From the UHGV virus genome UHGV-0203854: a DNA stretch of 54,414 bases; one strand, written 5' to 3'. This DNA comes from a virus. Made by a program: the position numbers and the translations under genes. Below are positions 3,007-51,519 of this stretch, piece after piece; the first letter of the stretch is position 1; the number at the start of each line of letters is the position of its first letter. The notes beneath the pieces were generated by a model. It searched no databases. It saw nothing but the letters and a program-made list of their open reading frames with translations, and was not told the DNA's origin.

Positions 3007-6000
3007 ATGGCAAAAAAAGGCATAAACTTTGTAATATCTGTAGACAACAAGCAAGCAGACACTGCAATTAGGTCTACACAGCAATCTTTTCGGAACATGG
3101 CTTCTCAAATGAAAGGACTGGGAAGTAATGTTGATAATGCTGTAAACAATTCATTTAGCAACATTGGCAAATCGGTCAAAAAAACAGCTACAGAAATAAC
3201 AGCAAGCATGGCTTCCATTGGCAAGTCAATGTTAGGTTTTACAGCTTTTCAGCAAGGTGCGCAATATGTACGTGAGTTTGTTGGCGAAATCGGAAGCTTC
3301 AAAAAGGCTATGACAGAAGTGTCAACAATATCGTCACAAGTTGCTGGTGACATGGAAGGCTTCTCTAACAAGGTTCTACAAATGACGAGCCAAATTCCAG
3401 TTGGAGCGACTGAAAGCGCAAAAGCGTTATATCAAATAGAGAGTGCATCGCATCATGGCGCAGACGCTCTAAATATTCTTGAACAATCGGCAAAGGCTGC
3501 TATTGGTGGCGTTACGGATACAGCAACAGCTGCAGACGCTATTACAACAATTCTAAATGCGTATCACATGAGCGCAGACCAAGCTCAAGCGGTAAGCGAT
3601 AAATTGTTCATGACTGTGCGAAACGGTAAAACAACATGGAATGAACTTGCACACAGCATTGCTAATGTAGCACCAGCAGCTGCATCTTACGGAGTCAGCC
3701 TTGATGAAATGTTGGCTGCTATTGCAACAATGACAAAGCAGGGCGTACAGACAGCAAATGCAGTAACCCAACTTAATGCAGTAATAACAGCAGGAACAAG
3801 CGCATTAGGTGATGGTGCGTTTCGCTCTCGCTCATTTGCAGATGCTATTGCAATGATAGAACATGCAGCAAACGGCAGTGATTTGGCGTTAAAAGCAGAA
3901 TTAGGTAATGTACGTGCTATGCGTGCAGTCTTTACTCTTGGCGGTGATAGTGCGAAGCTTTTTGCAGGCGACCTTAACGATATTAGTAATTCTGCTGGTT
4001 CTGCATCAAGCGCATACGAGAAGATGAGCAACACTCTTGGCGCACAACAGAAACTTCTAAAAAACAACATCACAAACTTGCTGACAGATTTAGTGGGCGG
4101 TGTGAACGCCTCATTGAAAGATGTTGTAAAGTTTATTAACAAGGCGTTTGAAACAGGTGAAGCACAGAAGTTTGTTAATGCTATCAAAGAACTTGTTATA
4201 GTGTATGGTTCGTATCGTGCGACAATTATTGCGACAAATGCAGTAATGAAGATACACAAAACAATTATGGAAGCTACACGAGTTGAAATGGCGTTAGCAA
4301 AATTAGCTTCTATTGAATGCACTACTGCACAAGCAATGCAAGCTGCAAGCCTTAAAGTGTTATCGCGTGCGTGGAAAACTCTTACAACGTCAATGCTTGC
4401 TAATCCTGTAATGTGGGTTGTTGGTGCTATTACAGCTCTTGTATATGCGACCTACAAACTTGTTACAGCTAACAACGATGCAGAAGTAGCACAGAACTCT
4501 TTGAACAGACAGATAGACAATTACAACAATAAAACATCGGAAGCACGTAACAAGACAAATGAATTTATAGACGCATTGCGTGACCAAAACAAAACGTTGT
4601 ACCAACAAGAAAAGGCGTATAAAGACCTCATAAAACAACGTGGAATTTTTGCCAAATACAGCATAGAGCAATTAAAAGCCATGTCGCAAGACGACATTGA
4701 AAAGTTGATTAACCAGTCTGACCAAGAACAAGAGTTACAACAACGTGCCAACCAGATTAAAGCCATTCAAGACCTTTTGCTACAACTTAAACCTGTAGAA
4801 GAATTAAATGACCGTGTTACTGTTTGGGGAGCTAATGCTACATACGCAAAAAAATACGACAAACAATATGGTTTGCAAGGGTCAGCTTTTTCTTTGCAAG
4901 ATATATACAATAAAGACATGAGCATTTGGACTGGAAATTGGAGCAGTCAGTGGGAAGCCGTGTTATCTCGAAACAAACAATATCTTGCGCAAATGAAGCA
5001 GGATATTACAGACGCTAATCTACACGAAGCACTTATACCTCAATCCAAAGAGCTTGAAGAATATTACATAGATGCTGAAAAAGCAGTTGATGTGTATCTT
5101 AATGCAATAAAAAAAATACCAGAAACCAGCCGTGAAGGAAGTGCGTCAGTTGCAAAGTTAAGCTCAACTGCAACAACAGCAATGAATGCAGTACGTAACA
5201 CGATATTGCGCAAAAAGGCAGAACTGCAAACAGAGCTAACGAAAAATCCAACAGATGTAAAAATACAGGCTCAAATTGAAAATTACAATAAAGTACTTTC
5301 TGACATAGAAACACTTGCAACATTGATACAGAACGGTGGCAAGCCGTGGGCTATTGATGTGCTTGTTAATTATCGCAAAGGTAAGATGCAGTTTGATGCG
5401 TCACAATTCAGCGGGCTTGATTTTACAAACAAACCGTTGACTGCATCTGCATTCCAAGGTAGAGCGAATAAAGGAATACAACAATTTCCTTTAATGGGCA
5501 TCAACTTTAGCAATCGCCAACAAGTGGCACAAGCAAGCGCATCAAGCGAGACGAAGCAAACAACACCCGAAGACACGTATAAACAACAGCAAGAAGCAGA
5601 AAAAGCGAAACAAAAGGCAGAGCAAGCACGACAAAGAGCAGAAGCAAAGCGTGAGCAGGAAACGCGAAAAAAACAACAAACAGAATTACGCAAGTTTGAG
5701 CGCACAATTAAGCAACAGCGTGAAAAAATCGATGCACAAATGCAGATTGAAGACGCTAATACAGCACTGCTACCTGAAAGCAAGACTAAGGCATCACGGA
5801 AAGCTCTTGATGATTATAACAAAACTGTTGAGAGCTTGCGCAGGGAATACGAAGACATACGCAAACAACGTTTCAACGATGCTCTTGCAGAATGGCAGGA
5901 AGATAATCCAGAATGGGCAAAGAAAGGTAAAACGTTTGGCAAAACTCTGAACGATTTTCAGCTTACTTCACAAGAGCAAGAAGCGTGGGATAAGCGCAAT

Positions 6001-15189: not shown

Positions 15190-16187
15190 TTAAGAAGGTT
15201 GTTAATGGTGAGGCTAAGGCGGTGAGTCGCATCTATAAAGGTGTGAAAAGTGAGTGTCGGCTGGAATTAGATGGGAGCGAAAATTGGATTTTGTACACTT
15301 CTGGTACGGGTTGGGCTGGAGTTTGTTTGGCAGATTTTCTATCAAGTGGACTAACTCGTGCTGCTCATTATAGTAACTATTTTGGATTTACACAGAAAGG
15401 CTTATCCAGTAGGTTTATTTGGGTCGGAGTTAATAACAAATATTTCTTTATTGTTTGGGCAAAAGGTAAACCACCCGTTGGCTACGAGCACTGGGAGAAG
15501 AATGGTGATGCGGATATTGATGCTATTAAGGCTGATTTGGCCAAAGAGCATTTGATAATTTGGTATGATAATACTAATTCATCGGTTGCGAGTATGTCGG
15601 CTCTGATACCTCTTATTGCAGGGGACACGGAAAAAGTCAAAAAGGTGGTCGATGTGACTGACCAGATGACGAACAGCGTGAAAAATTATTATTGGAATGC
15701 AGAGAATAAGGAGTGGACGGGAGCACATATGGAGCAAAAGGAGTATTGTCACGTTGGTAACGCAAAGCCTATCATCGAGAAATATGGTTTGCAGCGGTAT
15801 GTGATAGAATTTGACGGTCGGTCTGATGTTGCTGGGAGAATAGACCTCTACTCACTGTCTGGTGGAAATTATGGATATAGCATTGGCAATTACAATTATC
15901 AGTTTACAACAGATTGGCAGCATTATGAGATTGGATTCATTCCGACAATTCTAAATAACAGTACAGAGGGTAATTGTACTATCTCTTTTTATGGTAATTA
16001 TGGTTCCGGACGAGTTCCCCATATCAAAAACTTCAAAATTAGGACTTCCGTGGACGTGTTTACGCATGTGACGAGCGAGGTTGCCGATGGTGTTATGAAG
16101 ATGAGTCCTGCCGAGGTGGCCGATGGTGTGCTGACGATAAAGGGAGATAATGTAAAAGTGGAAAATAATAAATTGATAATACAATAA
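15186..16187 (+). CDS. Putative receptor-binding/carbohydrate-binding protein
   Basis: Translationally coupled to the fibre gene; CBM-like FTTDWQHYEIGF...IKNFKI region. Confidence 0.5.
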   Translation: MIKKVVNGEAKAVSRIYKGVKSECRLELDGSENWILYTSGTGWAGVCLADFLSSGLTRAAHYSNYFGFTQKGLSSRFIWVGVNNKYFFIVWAKGKPPVGYEHWEKNGDADIDAIKADLAKEHLIIWYDNTNSSVASMSALIPLIAGDTEKVKKVVDVTDQMTNSVKNYYWNAENKEWTGAHMEQKEYCHVGNAKPIIEKYGLQRYVIEFDGRSDVAGRIDLYSLSGGNYGYSIGNYNYQFTTDWQHYEIGFIPTILNNSTEGNCTISFYGNYGSGRVPHIKNFKIRTSVDVFTHVTSEVADGVMKMSPAEVADGVLTIKGDNVKVENNKLIIQ

Positions 16188-23671: not shown

Positions 23672-23693
23672 CAAAGGGTTTAAGATGCAGTTC

Positions 23694-23891
23694 ATGAACA
23701 ATAAAAAAGTATCGCAAATCTTAGATGCGTTAGAAAAAGACGGCTGGCGCATTGTGGCACAAAAAGGCAGCCACCGACAGTTGAAACACCCTACCAAAAA
23801 AGGAAAAGTAACTGTAAACGGAAAAAAGAGTGATGTTATTTGTGCGTTTTTACTCAAGTCAATTGAGTCTCAATCAGGGTTGAAGTTTTAA
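23694..23891 (+). CDS. hicA: HicA toxin (mRNA interferase)
   Basis: LEKDGW....KGSHRQLKHP.KKGKVTV motif. Confidence 0.92.
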   Translation: MNNKKVSQILDALEKDGWRIVAQKGSHRQLKHPTKKGKVTVNGKKSDVICAFLLKSIESQSGLKF

Positions 23892-23928
23892 ACTTCGCCC
23901 TTTTGAGGCTTCGCAAATTTATATAATT

Positions 23929-24336
23929 ATGAATAAAGTTATTATGCACACAGGTATTACTAAGACAGGATACTGTTGCACTTGTGATTTATTGCCTGGC
24001 TGGATTGTTACAGGGTCTAAAAGTTTTGACGAATTTAAAAACGAGGTGCAAGAAAGTATTGAGTTTTACGTTCAGTGCGCTAAAGAACAGCATGACACCT
24101 ATCCCCATATACTTGACAGCAACTTTGTGATTATTTATAAATTTAACGTTCAGTCACTTTTAGAATACTATCGTGGAATTTTTTCTTTTGCTGCTTTACA
24201 AACAATTACAGGTATTAACCAGAAACAGCTTGCACATTATGCGTCAGGTGTTTCAAAACCTCGCCCAAAACAAGTTGAAAAAATTGCAAAAGGTCTTCAC
24301 GCTCTTGCAAACGAGCTTATGACTATTACGGTATAA
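23929..24336 (+). CDS. hicB: HicB-like antitoxin with C-terminal HTH
   Basis: Downstream of hicA; RNase H-like N-terminus; TGINQKQLAHYASGVSKPR HTH. Confidence 0.85.
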   Translation: MNKVIMHTGITKTGYCCTCDLLPGWIVTGSKSFDEFKNEVQESIEFYVQCAKEQHDTYPHILDSNFVIIYKFNVQSLLEYYRGIFSFAALQTITGINQKQLAHYASGVSKPRPKQVEKIAKGLHALANELMTITV

Positions 24337-24349
24337 CAGCATAATTTAT

Positions 24350-24373
24350 GAGGGCGTTTTATATTACGCCCTC
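24350..24373. terminator. Hairpin between convergent hicB and integrase
   Basis: GAGGGCGT / ACGCCCTC inverted repeat. Confidence 0.6.
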
Positions 24374-25552
24374 CCCCTTGCCATACAGTACAAAATCTAT
24401 TACTTTGCGATTTGCAGCATCTACTTTTCGCAAATCAAAATCAATATAAATATCTGTAACAGTATTTTGACCATGCCCAAGAGCATGTGCAATCGTTTCT
24501 TTCGGAATGTCAAGTTGTGCAGCTATAGTTGCCCAGCTGTGTCTTGCCCAATACAAAGAAATGTCTTTTTTGTGAGTAATGCGTTTTATTTCACGATTAA
24601 TACTCATTCCTGCACGATGTGCATTAATAAACCTGCGGTACAACCACAATAAACGACTCCTACCTTTGTATTTGTCAATAATCACTTGCGCTTCTGGCTC
24701 TACTTTGATAGAATAATGTCTACCAGTCTTTGCTCTATCATATTCTATTCGACCGTATTCAACTTCTTTAAGATTGTACAAATCTGCAATGTTGATACCA
24801 ATAAGCAAAAAAGACAGACGGAAAGCGTCAATTAATTCCTGTTCGTTAAAATTATCCGCATCTTCCGTCATGAGCTTGCGCAATATTGCAATCGGCAACG
24901 CTCGTTTACGTGTTGTTTCTGACTTAATTTTAAATTGTCTAAAAGGATAATATGTAGTTAATTCGTCTGTGATTGCGGAATTAAATACTGCACGTATGTT
25001 GCGAAAGTGAATGCTTCTTCCATTAACAGAATGAGAGTTCTTTTGTAGGTATTTATCGAAGTTTGTAAGGTATATTGCATTAACATCTGTGTATAGACGG
25101 TTTTCAAAGTCTTTGTCGAACTGTTTAAGCCTGTTCAGTGTAACTTGATAAATCTCTTTTGTACGTTGTTTTCTACATTGTTCGATATAGCGCAAGTATT
25201 GTGGATATATCAAGTTTTTCTCACGCTCTCTAACAGGGTCAAGTCGTTCGGCTAACTTATTCTTAATATATGTTGCACTGTGCAACAATAGATGTTCGTC
25301 TTCGTCTATCATTGTTCGCAGCGTAAGTTCTGCTTTCATTTTCGCTTTTAGTATAATACTGTTATATATTGTCCGCTCAGGGTGATTAATTAACACACAC
25401 CGCTTTTTATCCCAAAATTCAGGACGGAAACGGAAGCCAAGGCTAAGCAATGCCGTTTGGTGACTAAAATTAATAGCAAGCTTTAACGGAGCTTCTTGCC
25501 AATCTTCAAGCCCTCTTGTATCAAGATACAGTTTTGTTTTAATTAAGTTCAT
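24359..25552 (-). CDS. int: Tyrosine integrase (Bacteroidota type)
   Basis: Arm-binding YLDTR start, SAM-like domain, R.KT, YWARHSWATIA and LGH...VTDIY catalytic motifs. Confidence 0.95.
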   Translation of the reverse strand: MNLIKTKLYLDTRGLEDWQEAPLKLAINFSHQTALLSLGFRFRPEFWDKKRCVLINHPERTIYNSIILKAKMKAELTLRTMIDEDEHLLLHSATYIKNKLAERLDPVREREKNLIYPQYLRYIEQCRKQRTKEIYQVTLNRLKQFDKDFENRLYTDVNAIYLTNFDKYLQKNSHSVNGRSIHFRNIRAVFNSAITDELTTYYPFRQFKIKSETTRKRALPIAILRKLMTEDADNFNEQELIDAFRLSFLLIGINIADLYNLKEVEYGRIEYDRAKTGRHYSIKVEPEAQVIIDKYKGRSRLLWLYRRFINAHRAGMSINREIKRITHKKDISLYWARHSWATIAAQLDIPKETIAHALGHGQNTVTDIYIDFDLRKVDAANRKVIDFVLYGKGEGVI

Positions 25553-25642
25553 GATTTTTGCAATTTTAGTGCAGGCTGTTGACGGTATTAGTGCATATTG
25601 AAATACACTAAAATACATTTACAGTCTTTTTTTTTATTGTTG

Positions 25643-25650: not shown

Positions 25651-25700
25651 TATTTTTCCACGCTTTCATTTTGCGCAATTCCCTTTAAATCTGTTAGTTA

Positions 25701-27968: not shown

Positions 27969-28073
27969 ACACAGAAAATATGCAGATTTTCGCACATTTT
28001 CTGTGTGTTTACACAGTTTTTGTGTAATTTTGCAATGTAATTAAAAAGCAATTACAAATTAGTTGCAAATATA
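27969..28073. promoter_or_regulatory. Genetic switch: operator-like inverted repeats and face-to-face promoters
   Basis: ACACAGAAAAT/ATTTTCTGTGT (27969-28006); ACACA/TGTGT (28011-28025); TAATTTTG on + (28025-28032); TATATTTG on - (28066-28073). Confidence 0.65.
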
Positions 28074-28099
28074 ATAAATAATAAATTAAAAACAAAACA

Positions 28100-28477
28100 A
28101 TGAGAACGGAAATTACAATTTTTAATCTGAACGGAAACAAAAAAGCAATTCGCCAGTACGCAGAAGATATAGCGTGCCTTACTTCACGCTCATCAAACGC
28201 ATACGTAATGGCAATTGACAAGAACAACGAACCTTTATGGGTGGTACAAGCTGGTGACCAACGTGCAGCAATGACAATCAGCTGGAAAGGTGTTTGCAGG
28301 GTTGAAATATACGACCATTCAATCGATAATAAAAACAAATACGAACAGGCATATCTGACTTCTCAAAAGCAAATGGACGAATACATGCTCGAATGGGAAA
28401 AAGCAAAGAGAAACGGAGCTGAATACACTATCGCAGAGAACAACACACAATATCACGTATTAGGCGGAAGAATATAA
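28100..28477 (+). CDS. Early hypothetical protein
   Basis: First gene of the rightward operon; A-rich start. Confidence 0.75.
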   Translation: MRTEITIFNLNGNKKAIRQYAEDIACLTSRSSNAYVMAIDKNNEPLWVVQAGDQRAAMTISWKGVCRVEIYDHSIDNKNKYEQAYLTSQKQMDEYMLEWEKAKRNGAEYTIAENNTQYHVLGGRI

Positions 28478-28504
28478 ACATAAACAACTTAAAACAACAA
28501 AACA

Positions 28505-28741
28505 ATGAAGACCGCAGAAATCAAAAAACTCAACGAACAAGCAGAAAACACTTACCAGACAATCAATCACATGATGAGCCAGAAAGGCCTCGAATTATTA
28601 GACCTCGCCTATCCCAATCATGATGGCGAACAAGACGGTGAAGCCGTTGCGGAAATGATGACGTTGAGGCAGACACTCTCCTCCCTTGCTACAGCATGTA
28701 AAATTTTACAGGAAAAACTAACAGATGCAATAAACGATTAA
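28505..28741 (+). CDS. Early hypothetical protein
   Basis: Clean ORF with A-rich start. Confidence 0.75.
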   Translation: MKTAEIKKLNEQAENTYQTINHMMSQKGLELLDLAYPNHDGEQDGEAVAEMMTLRQTLSSLATACKILQEKLTDAIND

Positions 28742-29139: not shown

Positions 29140-29409
29140 ATGGCAACAGAATTAGAAGCATTCCGCACTTACAACAGAGTTAAGAAAAGACACCCAGAAG
29201 TTGTAATACTCGTTCGCAATGGCAGCTTATACGCCACCTACAAGGCCGATGCAAAAATAGTCGCTGATGCGTGCGGCTTACACCTATCACACCGACACAA
29301 CAACAAACACTCAGCATTGTGTACTGCTTTTGGCATGTACAGCCTTTATGAATATCTTAACAAGATAATCTCCACAGGGCACAAGTTAGGAATTACAGAA
29401 TTAGACTAA
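29140..29409 (+). CDS. Stand-alone MutS domain I-like protein
   Basis: Y..VKKRHPEVVILVRNGSLY..Y.ADA..VA...GL.L resembles MutS_I. Confidence 0.7.
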   Translation: MATELEAFRTYNRVKKRHPEVVILVRNGSLYATYKADAKIVADACGLHLSHRHNNKHSALCTAFGMYSLYEYLNKIISTGHKLGITELD

Positions 29410-29493: not shown

Positions 29494-29853
29494 ATGACAA
29501 AAGAAGAAACAAAAGAACGCATTAAAGTAATGCAAGCATATATTGATGGTAAAGAAATAGAAGTTCAAAGTTTAAGTGGTGCGTGGTTTTTAACTACTAA
29601 TCCTGCTTGGTCTCCCGACAATAAATATCGTATAAAGACCGAGTATCGTCCTTTTAAAAATGATGAAGAATGTTGGAATGAAATGCAAAAGCATCTGCCT
29701 TTTGGCTGGATAAAAGATAAGGATGAGCGCTTTTATTCTATAACAAAAATTGACAGAGATGGTTGTTGTTCTGGAGATGACGATGATGCGTATGGTTTCC
29801 TTTTTAAATTTAGAAAATTCCTTGATGGAACACCATTTGGTATAAAAGAGTAA
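29494..29853 (+). CDS. Phage hypothetical protein
   Basis: YRPF...ECWNEM.KH.PFGWIK...DGTPFG motif. Confidence 0.75.
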   Translation: MTKEETKERIKVMQAYIDGKEIEVQSLSGAWFLTTNPAWSPDNKYRIKTEYRPFKNDEECWNEMQKHLPFGWIKDKDERFYSITKIDRDGCCSGDDDDAYGFLFKFRKFLDGTPFGIKE

Positions 29854-29873
29854 AATAAAATAAACTAAGAATT

Positions 29874-30293
29874 ATGACACTACAAGAACAATTTAAAACG
29901 TGCTTTAACGAGCTTACACCAGAATACACGAGAATAGGACTAAACCAAGAACGAATTTGGAATTGTAGGCAAGAGCGTGCTAAAATAGAAGAAAAATTAA
30001 AAGTTGAGGAATGCACACCTTTATATGTTAATCGCAGAACAACAATTGACAAACTTAGCATCGAAATAGAAGTTTACTCTTTACAAATAAACGCCTGTAT
30101 TGGAGTAATAGTCAGCAATATCAGAAGGCTGCTTGTAGCAAACGGCTATAACGTTACCAGCAACACACCTGTTGCATGGAATATGGCACAAGACATAAAA
30201 ACGCTTGTTGACCGTGAAGACATCTCAGAAAAGAAATTTCAAGACGGACTAAAATATATCACCTCTAAGTGGGAACAAGTGGGAACAGTCTGA
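29874..30293 (+). CDS. Hypothetical protein
   Basis: Clean ORF in the early operon. Confidence 0.7.
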   Translation: MTLQEQFKTCFNELTPEYTRIGLNQERIWNCRQERAKIEEKLKVEECTPLYVNRRTTIDKLSIEIEVYSLQINACIGVIVSNIRRLLVANGYNVTSNTPVAWNMAQDIKTLVDREDISEKKFQDGLKYITSKWEQVGTV

Positions 30294-30349
30294 TTAAAAA
30301 CTGTGAACTTTTTCTGCCAGCGATGGCCGAGGGGGCGTGAGCAACCGCA

Positions 30350-30437
30350 GTGGCGGTGGGCGACTTGTTTGAGTTATTATTATTCTCTATCCATTCATTG
30401 TTTTGTTTCGGAGGGTTCGAGTCCCTCCCACGCCACA
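30350..30437 (+). ncRNA. tRNA-like RNA (acceptor helix + T-arm) with a U-rich antisense insert
   Basis: GTGGCG(G)TGG pairs with CCACGCCAC; T-arm GAGGG-TTCGAGT-CCCTC; no D or anticodon arm. Confidence 0.65.
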
Positions 30438-30460
30438 CACAACATATAAACGACAACATA

Positions 30461-31225
30461 ATGAACGAGATTAAAATTATTAAGCAAACAGAGCTATGCG
30501 GACAAACATTTTCCGTCTATGGCACTCCAGAAGACCCGCTGTTTCTTGCAAAAGAAGTAGCAGAAGCAATAGGACATTCAGATGTATCTATGATGGTTTC
30601 AAAAATTGATGAAACGGAACACCTGAGACAAACAATATTTGTATCAGGTCAGAAGCGAGAAGTTATAATGCTCACAGAGGACGGATTGTATGAAGTATTA
30701 ATGCAGTCACGCAAGCCAGCTGCCAAGCAATTTAAGAAAGGAGTAAAACTCATTCTGAAAGAAATTAGGACTAAGGGCGGTTACATGACTGTCAAAGACG
30801 AAACTCCAGAAGAAACTATTGCAAGAGCGTTGCTTATGGCCCAGCACACCATTGAACTTCGGGACAAACGTATTGCCCTGCAAGCAGAACAGCTCAAACT
30901 GCAAGCCCCTAAGGTAGCGTATGTTGACGAAGTATTAGCAAGCGACCGCACCTATACCACCACTCAGATTGCGAAAGAACTTGACATGACAAGCGCACAG
31001 GCACTACAGAAGATGCTATGCGACAACGGCATCATGTTTCGCCAGAGTGGGCAATGGTTGCTCACTGCGAAATATTCAGCCAAAGGCTACACCAAAACAC
31101 GCACACATACCTATATATGCTCCAGTGGCGAACAGGGAACGAATACTATAACCGTCTGGACAGAGACAGGCAGAGCCTTCCTGCACGCAATCACGAAGAA
31201 AATCACGGAATTAAAAACAAAATAA
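30461..31225 (+). CDS. Antirepressor (Bro-N + KilAC/ANT)
   Basis: PLFLAKEVAE, LTEDGLYEVLMQSRKP.AK.FK; APKV.Y.D, TTTQIAKEL and WTETGR motifs. Confidence 0.93.
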   Translation: MNEIKIIKQTELCGQTFSVYGTPEDPLFLAKEVAEAIGHSDVSMMVSKIDETEHLRQTIFVSGQKREVIMLTEDGLYEVLMQSRKPAAKQFKKGVKLILKEIRTKGGYMTVKDETPEETIARALLMAQHTIELRDKRIALQAEQLKLQAPKVAYVDEVLASDRTYTTTQIAKELDMTSAQALQKMLCDNGIMFRQSGQWLLTAKYSAKGYTKTRTHTYICSSGEQGTNTITVWTETGRAFLHAITKKITELKTK

Positions 31226-49248: not shown

Positions 49249-51519
49249 ATGGCTAAACAAGACAAGCACGACAAAAAGCAAAGCTGCATTATTGCAGGGT
49301 CAATAAAGAATGTAAGTGCAGTGTTTAATGCCACTGTATGGAAAGCTGTACACATTGCAACAAAATCAAGCTATAACCCTGACAATGGGCAACCGTTTTC
49401 GTTTAGTCGTGCCGACACAAAGAAACAAGCTGGCAAATTACTAAAACAGTTTGCAAGCAAAATACAGTCTGTTGTGTTGACTGGAAACAATGTATCATGG
49501 GCAAACGCTAACGACAAGAACGATGTTATTATAACAACGCTTGCAAACGGAAAGAAAATACCGAAAGGGCTGTTGGCACGATGGCAACAACACAATCTTG
49601 AAGCTTTGCAAGAGTTTAACACTCGTACCGAGAACGGCATGAATTTAAGTAACCGTATATGGGACGTAAGTAAACAATTCCGTAACGAACTTGAGTTAGC
49701 AATTACCGTTGGCATGGGTGAAGGTAATAGCGCAGACGTTTTAAGCCGTGATGTACGCCAATACTTGATACACCCTAACAACTTGTTTCGCAGGGTGCGT
49801 GACGCAAAAAACAATCTGCACCTAAGCAAAGCTGCAAAAGCGTACCACCCTGGCAGGGGTGTCTACAGAAGCAGTTACAAAAATGCACTTCGCATGACCG
49901 CAACAGAAAACAATATGGCGTACCGCACAGCAGATTACACACGGTGGCAGCAGATGGATTTTGTTTTGGGTATAATGATTAAAACAAGCCCAAACAATCA
50001 CCCAGTGTCAGACATTTGCGACACATTGCAGGGACGTTATCCGAAAGACTTCAAATTTCGTGGTTGGCATCCGTGGTGCAGATGTTTTGCAACGCCAATT
50101 TTACCGAATGAGAACGCATTCTTTAAAGGGCTTACAGCAGACCTTAAAGGCAGTGTAAATCCATACGGCACGCCTGTAACAACAATGCCAAGCCGTTTCG
50201 CAAAGTGGGTCACAGATAACACAGAACGAGTTAAAAACGGTTCAACTGTACCGTATTGGATAAAAGACAACTTTAAAAACGGAAACATTGAAAATGGGTT
50301 GAAGTTTGGAGCAATTAGCACTGACGCAAATACAAATATTAGTGATATTGAGAAACTTGCAAAAACAGTGGGCGTAAACATCGAAAAGCCCATGGAGCAT
50401 GAACAAGCGAACACTAACCAACCAAATCCACATTATGCAGAAGATAAACAATATCAAATAAATTGTCAAAGTACTGTCGTAACGTATGAATTGCGTAGAC
50501 GTGGTATGCCTGTCGAAGCGTATGGCAACACTGCTAAAAACAACACCATGAGCATCTGCATGGGTGAAGTTCTTGCCACAAATACTCGTGCTGCATGGGT
50601 AACAGAAGATGGCAACATGCCAACAGCTATTAACAGTAAAAAACAAGTTACGGGGCGTACTGTTGACAAGCGAGGGTATGTGCGCAATACTTATTCGACA
50701 GACAAAGAGATAATGCAAGACTTCTACAACAAGACGAGTGAAGCAGGGCGTTATCATGTTTATTGGACTTGGGACAAAAGAAAAAGCGGACACATTATTA
50801 CAATGGAAGTATTTAAAGACGGTACAAGACGTTTCTATGACCCACAGACAGGTATTAATTCGACAGACTTCAAGAAGTTTTCAACAAAGAGGGGAAGAAA
50901 TTGTGTTGACCTTGAACGTGGACTATCTGCCTATCGTGTAGACAATCTGCAACCAAATCCAATTGTATGCCGTGGCGTTGTTAAGAAAGCAGGAAGTAAT
51001 TTGCAGACACCTGCTGTAGACAAAGAACAGCGCGAATGGTGGAAGAAGAATGTTTTAGGGAAAGAAATAACGAATGTTGGAATAGCAGGATTTGAACCAC
51101 TAAAGAAGAAAGACGTTGAATATGTATCAGAAACAAAAGGGCGTGTGGACGTGCATTCTTCCCGACTTGAAAACGCAAACAAGAACAAACAAGAAAGAGC
51201 GAAATTTGAGAAAGAACATAGAATGTGTTGTGTTCTTGCAGACAACGGCTATAAGATAGAAATGTTGCAAGAAGTGGCAGGAGTGCCATCTTCAGACATT
51301 TTGATTAACGGAAAGAAAGCCGATTTAAAAGCAACAAAGAGCGCAAATAACATTGTAAAATACGGGAAATCTGCAATTAGGAAGCAAGGCGCAGATATAG
51401 TTATTTTTGAATTTGAAAAAGAAACGGCAGAGATTTATAAACAGTTACAGATATTAAAGAAAGAACAGATTAAATGTAAATATTATTTTAAGAATGGGAA
51501 AAAAGTACACGACCTGTAA
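49249..51519 (+). CDS. MuF-like minor head protein fused to a papain-like domain and a C-terminal PD-(D/E)xK (CdiA-CT-like) nuclease
   Basis: MuF motifs NALR...TE.N.AYR and CD.L.G.YPKDF.F.GWHPWCRC; NCQS...YELRRRG/GH/YDPQ; D..ING..ADLK. Confidence 0.85.
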   Translation: MAKQDKHDKKQSCIIAGSIKNVSAVFNATVWKAVHIATKSSYNPDNGQPFSFSRADTKKQAGKLLKQFASKIQSVVLTGNNVSWANANDKNDVIITTLANGKKIPKGLLARWQQHNLEALQEFNTRTENGMNLSNRIWDVSKQFRNELELAITVGMGEGNSADVLSRDVRQYLIHPNNLFRRVRDAKNNLHLSKAAKAYHPGRGVYRSSYKNALRMTATENNMAYRTADYTRWQQMDFVLGIMIKTSPNNHPVSDICDTLQGRYPKDFKFRGWHPWCRCFATPILPNENAFFKGLTADLKGSVNPYGTPVTTMPSRFAKWVTDNTERVKNGSTVPYWIKDNFKNGNIENGLKFGAISTDANTNISDIEKLAKTVGVNIEKPMEHEQANTNQPNPHYAEDKQYQINCQSTVVTYELRRRGMPVEAYGNTAKNNTMSICMGEVLATNTRAAWVTEDGNMPTAINSKKQVTGRTVDKRGYVRNTYSTDKEIMQDFYNKTSEAGRYHVYWTWDKRKSGHIITMEVFKDGTRRFYDPQTGINSTDFKKFSTKRGRNCVDLERGLSAYRVDNLQPNPIVCRGVVKKAGSNLQTPAVDKEQREWWKKNVLGKEITNVGIAGFEPLKKKDVEYVSETKGRVDVHSSRLENANKNKQERAKFEKEHRMCCVLADNGYKIEMLQEVAGVPSSDILINGKKADLKATKSANNIVKYGKSAIRKQGADIVIFEFEKETAEIYKQLQILKKEQIKCKYYFKNGKKVHDL

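Follow-up and report, generated by a model that had tools for sequence, protein, structure and literature searches.

The stretch of DNA analyzed here (hereafter the window, 54,414 nt at its full length) is the genome of a temperate phage, taken to be one of gut Prevotella, and directly ahead of its antirepressor gene (ant) it carries a tRNA-scaffolded element that is real and apparently undescribed. Our best reading is that the element encodes an antisense RNA that resembles C4 and is built on a tRNA scaffold, and that this RNA would have been retargeted to host mRNAs. We regard it as reasonably probable that a tRNA-shaped scaffold with a variable insert antisense to start regions is cut from the early transcript and blocks a host mRNA as well as the first two early genes of the phage. 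This function, predicted from sequence, is backed by a host target with strong statistics and by a good second case. The literature that we searched yielded no description of the element.

A tRNA-like scaffold inside the early operon

The integrase lies at 24359-25618, with an att-like 3' half of a tRNA-Ser beside it near 25700, apart from the element. The early operon runs from 28100, the Bro-N/ANT antirepressor lies at 30461, and the genome also has recombination and replication genes, a portal, and a capsid; a divergent repressor-like gene in the window is without a family match, and early gene 1 gave no Pfam or PHROG family and no usable fold match. Upstream of the operon is a TAnnTTTG sequence that we take to be a Bacteroidota-type -7 promoter. 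No second motif of this type occurs between it and the element, which sits inside the early operon, 2.3 kb past the only promoter motif found, and ant begins 25 nt past the element. The features are collected in Table 1.

Table 1. Positions in the window of the early-operon features and of the parts of the RNA element
Feature	Position	Strand	Details
Bacteroidota-type -7 promoter motif, presumed (TAnnTTTG)	28025..28032	+	
Early gene 1	28100-28477	+	start region 28090-28103 is a 14-nt seed complement; duplex -22.3
Early gene 2	28505-28741	+	start region 28496-28509 is a 14-nt seed complement; duplex -27.9
GNRA-tetraloop hairpin, predicted 5' leader	30316..30327	+	4-bp stem, loop GCGA
Acceptor-like stem, 5' strand GGCGTG	30334..30339	+	MFE fold
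D-like hairpin	30344..30357	+	5 bp, loop AGTG
5' part of U-rich insert	30358..30393	+	alignments, duplex
Conserved seed, pairing with start regions of AACAAAACAAUGAA type	30394..30408	+	complements 28090-28103, 28496-28509, and the host regulator start perfectly
T-arm	30410..30428	+	6 bp, loop TTCGAGT
Acceptor-like stem, 3' strand CACGCC, and discriminator A	30429..30435	+	no encoded CCA
Antirepressor (Bro-N + ANT/KilAC)	30461..31225	+	PF02498, PF03374; phrog_130

Some other features of the genome are recorded here for their own sake. Compared with L109, L277, and L311, the N-terminal part of ant (30484-30773) is swapped, although both the C-terminal domain of ant and the RNA element have been retained. 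A HicA-family gene and its likely HicB partner, the latter without a Pfam match, lie at 23685-24336 between the lysin and the integrase, a tRNA-Met(CAT) gene lies in the tail gene region (2182-2255), the minor head protein (49249-51519) contains a region matching a PHROG annotated as ADP-ribosyltransferase, and the early operon encodes a stand-alone 89-aa MutS domain I protein (29140-29409).

The better-supported fold of the element spans 30334-30435 (102 nt) and consists of a GGCGTG/CACGCC acceptor, the T-arm, the D-like hairpin, and a 52-nt U-rich insert. Pairing of 30334-30339 with 30429-30434 together with the D-like hairpin gives -33.7 kcal/mol and an ensemble probability of 0.61. A sequence-only reading of this DNA had proposed a tRNA-type scaffold with a different acceptor register, 30350-30359 with 30428-30436, which can form but is weaker (-23.9 kcal/mol, ensemble probability 0.39). 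Because the GGCGTG/CACGCC layout alone recurs in the distant relatives and has the lower energy, we favor a molecule of about 102 nt in which a D arm is present. Thus, the T-arm of that reading stands, now at 6 bp, and the sequence strings that it quoted are all found where it placed them, but its replaced D arm gives way to the hairpin at 30344-30357, and its species of ~88 nt to the longer one. The helix between 30350-30359 and 30428-30436 excludes the tRNA fold and makes up 39% of the ensemble; it is possible that a folding switch between the two registers controls processing.

The acceptor and T-arm stack to 12 bp, divided 6 + 6 in the window and 7 + 5 in L103. Twelve base pairs is the stack length that RNase P measures in tRNA, and from this stack a cut before 30334 is predicted. 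Folding energy alone lies within chance, with z values of 0.20 for 30316-30465 and -1.95 for 30350-30440. Across seven sequences, 98% of cells in the scaffold are paired and 8/17 pairs are compensated, a result reached by 0/500 shuffles; in the acceptor-like stem, four of the six pairs show a compensatory change. This covariation is supportive rather than final, since four of the seven sequences hardly differ from one another and the model served to fit the alignment. The D-like hairpin is unchanged in the five close variants and compensated in L103 and L482. The loop of the leader hairpin reads GCGA in the window and L109/L316 and GTGA in L277, L311, and L319, both of which fit GNRA. The opening part of the seed is mostly unpaired in the predicted RNA. 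Neither ARAGORN nor Rfam at its gathering scores calls the element. A peptide encoded on the minus strand of the insert was considered and rejected, as its frame is not conserved, with a stop after three codons in the window and other lengths elsewhere.

Relatives and distribution

Five close variants of the element (the window, L109, which is the same as L001 and L316, L311, L319, and L277) score 113-132 bits with our RNA model R2, and all of them stand directly before ant. Four distant elements score 49 bits (L103), 26 bits (L482), 25 bits (L193), and 19 bits (L179, weak), two of the four being rated weak; they have the same layout as the window with compensatory changes, and L103, L179, and L193 precede genes other than ant. 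Among the close variants, the scaffold is fixed save for one change, as is the 14-15-nt seed, 14 nt of which are identical in 5/5, while the adjoining 18-26 nt differ. The five phages are ~80-95% identical nearby, and yet the stretch adjoining the seed is not shared; in the alignments, the hypervariable stretch is 30374-30393. The broader proposal of the sequence-only reading, a conserved tRNA-like scaffold displaying a variable, single-stranded insert antisense to starts without Shine-Dalgarno (SD) sequences, is backed by the model searches and the covariation. The inserts are 39-58% U and contain one to three CAT trinucleotides each (at least two in 8/9), a count to be read in the light of the CAT pattern by which L179 and L193 had been detected.

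The element is rare, occurring at 1/80 ant loci. Model searches gave one new member in 151 genus genomes, where two further matches were a tRNA and a coding sequence, and none in 151 order genomes or 151 family genomes; 100 viral loci held no new member. One model match, at G704:C35, has an E value of 0.016. Pattern scans returned mostly tRNA and tmRNA ends, with members making up 2/45, 2/120, 1/16, 1/17, and 3/22 of the matches and no new one among 13. A pattern search of 401 family genomes had no matches, and the pattern also missed the known copy in the Prevotella genome G002. BLAST against annotated phages produced short chance matches only.

Related structures were seen in other non-coding phage DNA. 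A related prophage (L486:14215-14836, in G485:C40) has four tRNA-like acceptor/T-arm elements in a row, only the last with a U-rich insert. T-arm hairpins that do not match model R2 are present at L193:4880 and at L097:35-114, the latter following a U-rich stretch.

Predicted targets in the host and in the phage

Because a 9.6-kb sister prophage contig in the Prevotella MAG G002 (L277) is 92-93% identical to the window over ~5.6 kb, we treated G002 as a near host, a link that rests on MAG binning. The host scan covered 1810 genes in 2.55 of its ~3.1 Mb. Besides the element itself, a search with the seed found one site with a single mismatch, and this site is the start of a gene for a 219-aa NarL/LuxR-type regulator with a GerE domain, followed by genes for a LytTR regulator and an AMP-binding enzyme. 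The main duplex covers the AUG with 14 + 3 + 16 bp (-39.9 kcal/mol), in which insert positions 30373-30388 pair with codons 5-10, and it ranks first of 3987 start windows, the next standing at -31.2 kcal/mol. Shuffles of the variable stretch reached the score in 0/1500 cases on the regulator gene; 0/300 did so genome-wide by ungapped score, and 0/60 by energy on 100 seed-selected starts. Both 14-mers are single-copy in the 2.55 Mb of G002 and lie 5 nt apart across the regulator AUG, and the second match of the RNA model in G002 is this same start on the opposite strand. A point against the match is that its extension includes a low-complexity AAT repeat.

The match is specific to one host lineage: of 17 loci obtained in the relatives search, none but the G002 gene pairs so well, the others ranging from -9.7 to -23.6. 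The 90%-identical allele in the sibling genome G788 reaches -25.4. The host shows no enrichment of short seed matches, with 14 sites at up to two mismatches and 14 for the reversed control. The sequence-only reading had suggested that a second segment of the insert may target host or other phage mRNAs as a separate guide. The direction toward host mRNA was right, but the two segments join into one guide, and what they form on the host gene start is a single 33-bp match that includes the seed.

The second case is a MATE transporter. The insert of L277 matches G788:C25:15377-15403 over 27 nt (93%, E 0.004), and the start of the MATE gene lies at 15387. Searches of G788 turned up neither the scaffold nor ant, so that this site is no further copy of the element. 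The G788 gene is 92% identical to a MATE gene in G002, where L277 itself resides, yet this allele ranks only 344th for the L277 insert.

Other results argue against host targeting. By energy in G002, shuffles did as well as the insert for L109 in 29/60 cases, for L319 in 21/60, and for L277 in 10/38, leaving one of four close inserts above its shuffles. By ungapped score, L109 (1/80) and L277 (0/80) seemed to do better, but the match of L277 is inside a coding sequence. The regulator ranks 7th, 41st, and 136th with the L109, L319, and L277 inserts, respectively. For the L103 insert, neither its own complete genome nor G002 contains an outlier, save a 12-nt match to its own integrase start, and the L482 insert has no target with two patterns in the host MAG G485. 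With the L109, L319, and L277 inserts, high ranks also went to the starts of carB, a sodium-dependent transporter, and a SusD-like protein; these did not exceed shuffles, and we set them aside.

The start of an HK97-type capsid gene was likewise rejected as a target of the L109 insert (-39.1 kcal/mol). The sites, L510:1501-1526 and L512:792-817, came from a viral scan with a pattern drawn from the L109 and L319 inserts. Relatives of the capsid gene include Tara-source proteins, and none occur in G002 or G788; the match, in an apparently marine virus, is probably a chance event among an estimated ~10^11 positions. It follows that accidents of equal strength can arise in very large searches and that A-rich starts are prone to them. 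The regulator match was found among ~5 x 10^6 positions, a search space four orders of magnitude smaller than that of the viral scan.

Within the phage, 30395-30408 and 30394-30407 are perfect 14-nt complements of 28090-28103 and 28496-28509, respectively, as the sequence-only reading had claimed. These are the only insert complements of at least 13 nt in the 54.4-kb window, and both cover a start codon. Complements of this length touch 2/81 window genes and 2/1810 host genes (binomial P ~0.004), and the start of early gene 2 is the best of 142 start windows in the window. The pairing with the ant start can be counted by hand at 13 of 14 positions (two G-U), as had also been claimed, but its energy (-18.8 kcal/mol) is background, differing from the mean for the window (-15.1, SD 4.5) by less than one SD. 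Both early-gene sites are found in three of the five close variants (the window, L311, and L319). L109/L316 and L277 have another immunity module and keep the seed, with no such sites in the assembled early region, and the complete phage G003 has both early sites with a different insert. The seed and the phage's own sites thus do not covary, which argues that feedback on early genes 1 and 2, although plausible from the complementarity, is not the whole story.

Known RNAs, other readings, and significance

The closest parallel is C4. C4 is described as a three-stem RNA of ~77 nt that is cut by RNase P and pairs with phage targets through loops a' and b', and C4-like RNAs of Acinetobacter with variable loops are proposed to act on host transcripts (PMC5320573). 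C4 and mRNAs appear among the RNase P substrates in PMC11143913, C4 is listed for Proteobacteria and phages in PMC2864571, and PMC5737381 describes c4-2 as probably a distant homolog of an RNA known earlier. Like C4 of P1/P7 (RF01695) and c4-2 (RF02944), the element is a phage RNA ahead of an antirepressor (in the five close variants, though not in L103, L179, or L193), it has conserved stems with variable single-stranded targeting parts, and it is predicted to share the RNase P cut from a longer transcript that is known for C4 (PMC5320573). Unlike C4, it has a true T-loop, a D-like arm, and one long linear guide in place of loops a' and b', it finds no good target at the ant start, and its best target is a host gene. 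Of the C4-type pair of target sites, the upstream one is perfect in three of the five close variants, and the one at the ant start is at background energy. The C4 clan (CL00128) has no match at gathering, nor at E <=10 within 29800-30800, and as a positive control c4-2 was found before ant in five of seven other ant loci scanned. As judged from sequence, the element is partly C4-like in its working, is not a member of the family, and fills the slot of c4-2. Separately, we observed that Bacteroides-type ant leaders (L012, L026, L047, L054, and L070, at ~4895-4985) belong to Rfam c4-2 and have their parts in the order a / anti-a / a, the end of which falls on the ant start codon, and that similar-looking ant leaders in L044 and L069 fall below the gathering score.

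The P4 CI RNA is matured by RNase P from the early operon that it regulates and acts by premature termination through sites in its own transcript. The element resembles it in its predicted RNase P maturation from such an operon and differs in that complementarity is centered on start codons, host genes included, and that a separate divergent repressor-like gene is present. An acceptor stem stacked on a T-arm is shared with tRNA, the tRNA-like domain of tmRNA, and top-half mimics of the mascRNA/menRNA type, but the element has no anticodon arm, G3-U70, tag ORF, or encoded CCA. Rfam likeness is weak (tRNA-Sec 17.4 bits, mascRNA 17.0 bits, all far below gathering scores), and 25/35 nt are shared with the 3' end of the G002 tmRNA. 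Set against tRNA (RF00005), an acceptor stacked on a T-arm with a TTCRANY loop was found, and a cloverleaf with an anticodon arm and 7-nt loop was not. A tmRNA or att-site tRNA remnant was rejected: there is no tmRNA call, the att-like tRNA-Ser half is elsewhere, and the element has its own paired 5' strand.

Other readings explain part of these results. The RNA could serve a C4-like circuit confined to the phage, damping early genes 1 and 2 and the antirepressor, with the host matches accidental. The two perfect sites at the operon's first two genes (P ~0.004), present also in L311 and L319, and the place before ant that c4-2 takes in Bacteroides prophages fit such a circuit, but the background-level ant pairing, the seed kept without sites in L109/L316 and L277, the sites with another insert in G003, and the three elements that precede other genes do not, and the 16-bp extension on the host gene would be left unexplained; we consider it unlikely. 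Alternatively, the element may be a processing signal at which RNase P and RNase Z split the early message before ant, the insert being a spacer and perhaps a captured, inverted, and inactive piece of host DNA. The elements closely precede a start codon in the loci read, three of the four tRNA-like elements in L486 are without a U-rich insert, and capture of host DNA could yield a long match without selection. A spacer, on the other hand, need not keep a 14-nt anti-start seed in 5/5 variants or be antisense over the AUG of two different host genes, and we think this reading quite improbable; processing and antisense action are mutually compatible.

We give little credence to a guide against competing phages, in which the seed would silence heteroimmune early genes and the variable part other phage genes. 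G003 has two early starts complementary to the seed, a G002 prophage gene is the fifth match of the window insert (-30.2), and the L109 and L319 inserts match a viral capsid start; against this, Tara-source members occur in the capsid family, for which neither G002 nor G788 has a match, the bipartite site of the window has 0 matches in viral contigs, and the element is seemingly transcribed from the lytic-side promoter and so would not be made in the lysogen. Least convincing is a tRNA decoy or decayed tRNA gene with a tRNA-Glu-like acceptor that titrates host proteins that bind or cut tRNA, which we judge very improbable: the first six acceptor bases are those of a G002 tRNA-Glu, but the missing anticodon arm and CCA and the lack of an ARAGORN or Rfam call speak against it, and such a role does not predict antisense matches.

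We therefore return to the tRNA-scaffolded antisense RNA. Transcription of the early operon from the promoter motif at 28025 would carry the element, and host RNase P and 3' tRNA-trimming enzymes would take the stack for a pre-tRNA and release an RNA of ~102 nt, leaving the ant message with a new 5' end. By its complementarity, the seed would cover the A-rich start region and the AUG, and the variable stretch would carry the pairing on into the opening codons of a single host gene, that of the NarL/LuxR-type regulator (33 bp). Bacteroidetes are described as lacking SD sequences and as tuning initiation through adenines upstream, A-3 in particular, and through mRNA structure (PMC6847099). As Bacteroidota ribosomes do without SD pairing and need an open A-rich start region, initiation should be stopped by a duplex that spans -11 to about +28. 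Movement of the phage lineage among sibling Prevotella hosts may be accompanied by rewriting of the variable stretch. More tentatively, and with considerable doubt, we suggest a programmable antisense family in Bacteroidales phages, in which a fixed tRNA chassis, processed by host enzymes, would carry a guide rewritten or captured from host starts and regulators or transporters chosen by each lineage would be silenced.

To our knowledge, silencing of chosen host genes has been described for few phage RNAs. The analysis names a concrete, testable target, an uncharacterized Prevotella response regulator, which would point to a host pathway of importance for the phage, and it hints at the workings of antisense control in bacteria whose ribosomes take no account of SD sequences. 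With its swappable guide of 45-55 nt, a natural tRNA chassis would also be a compact knock-down tool for gut Bacteroidales.
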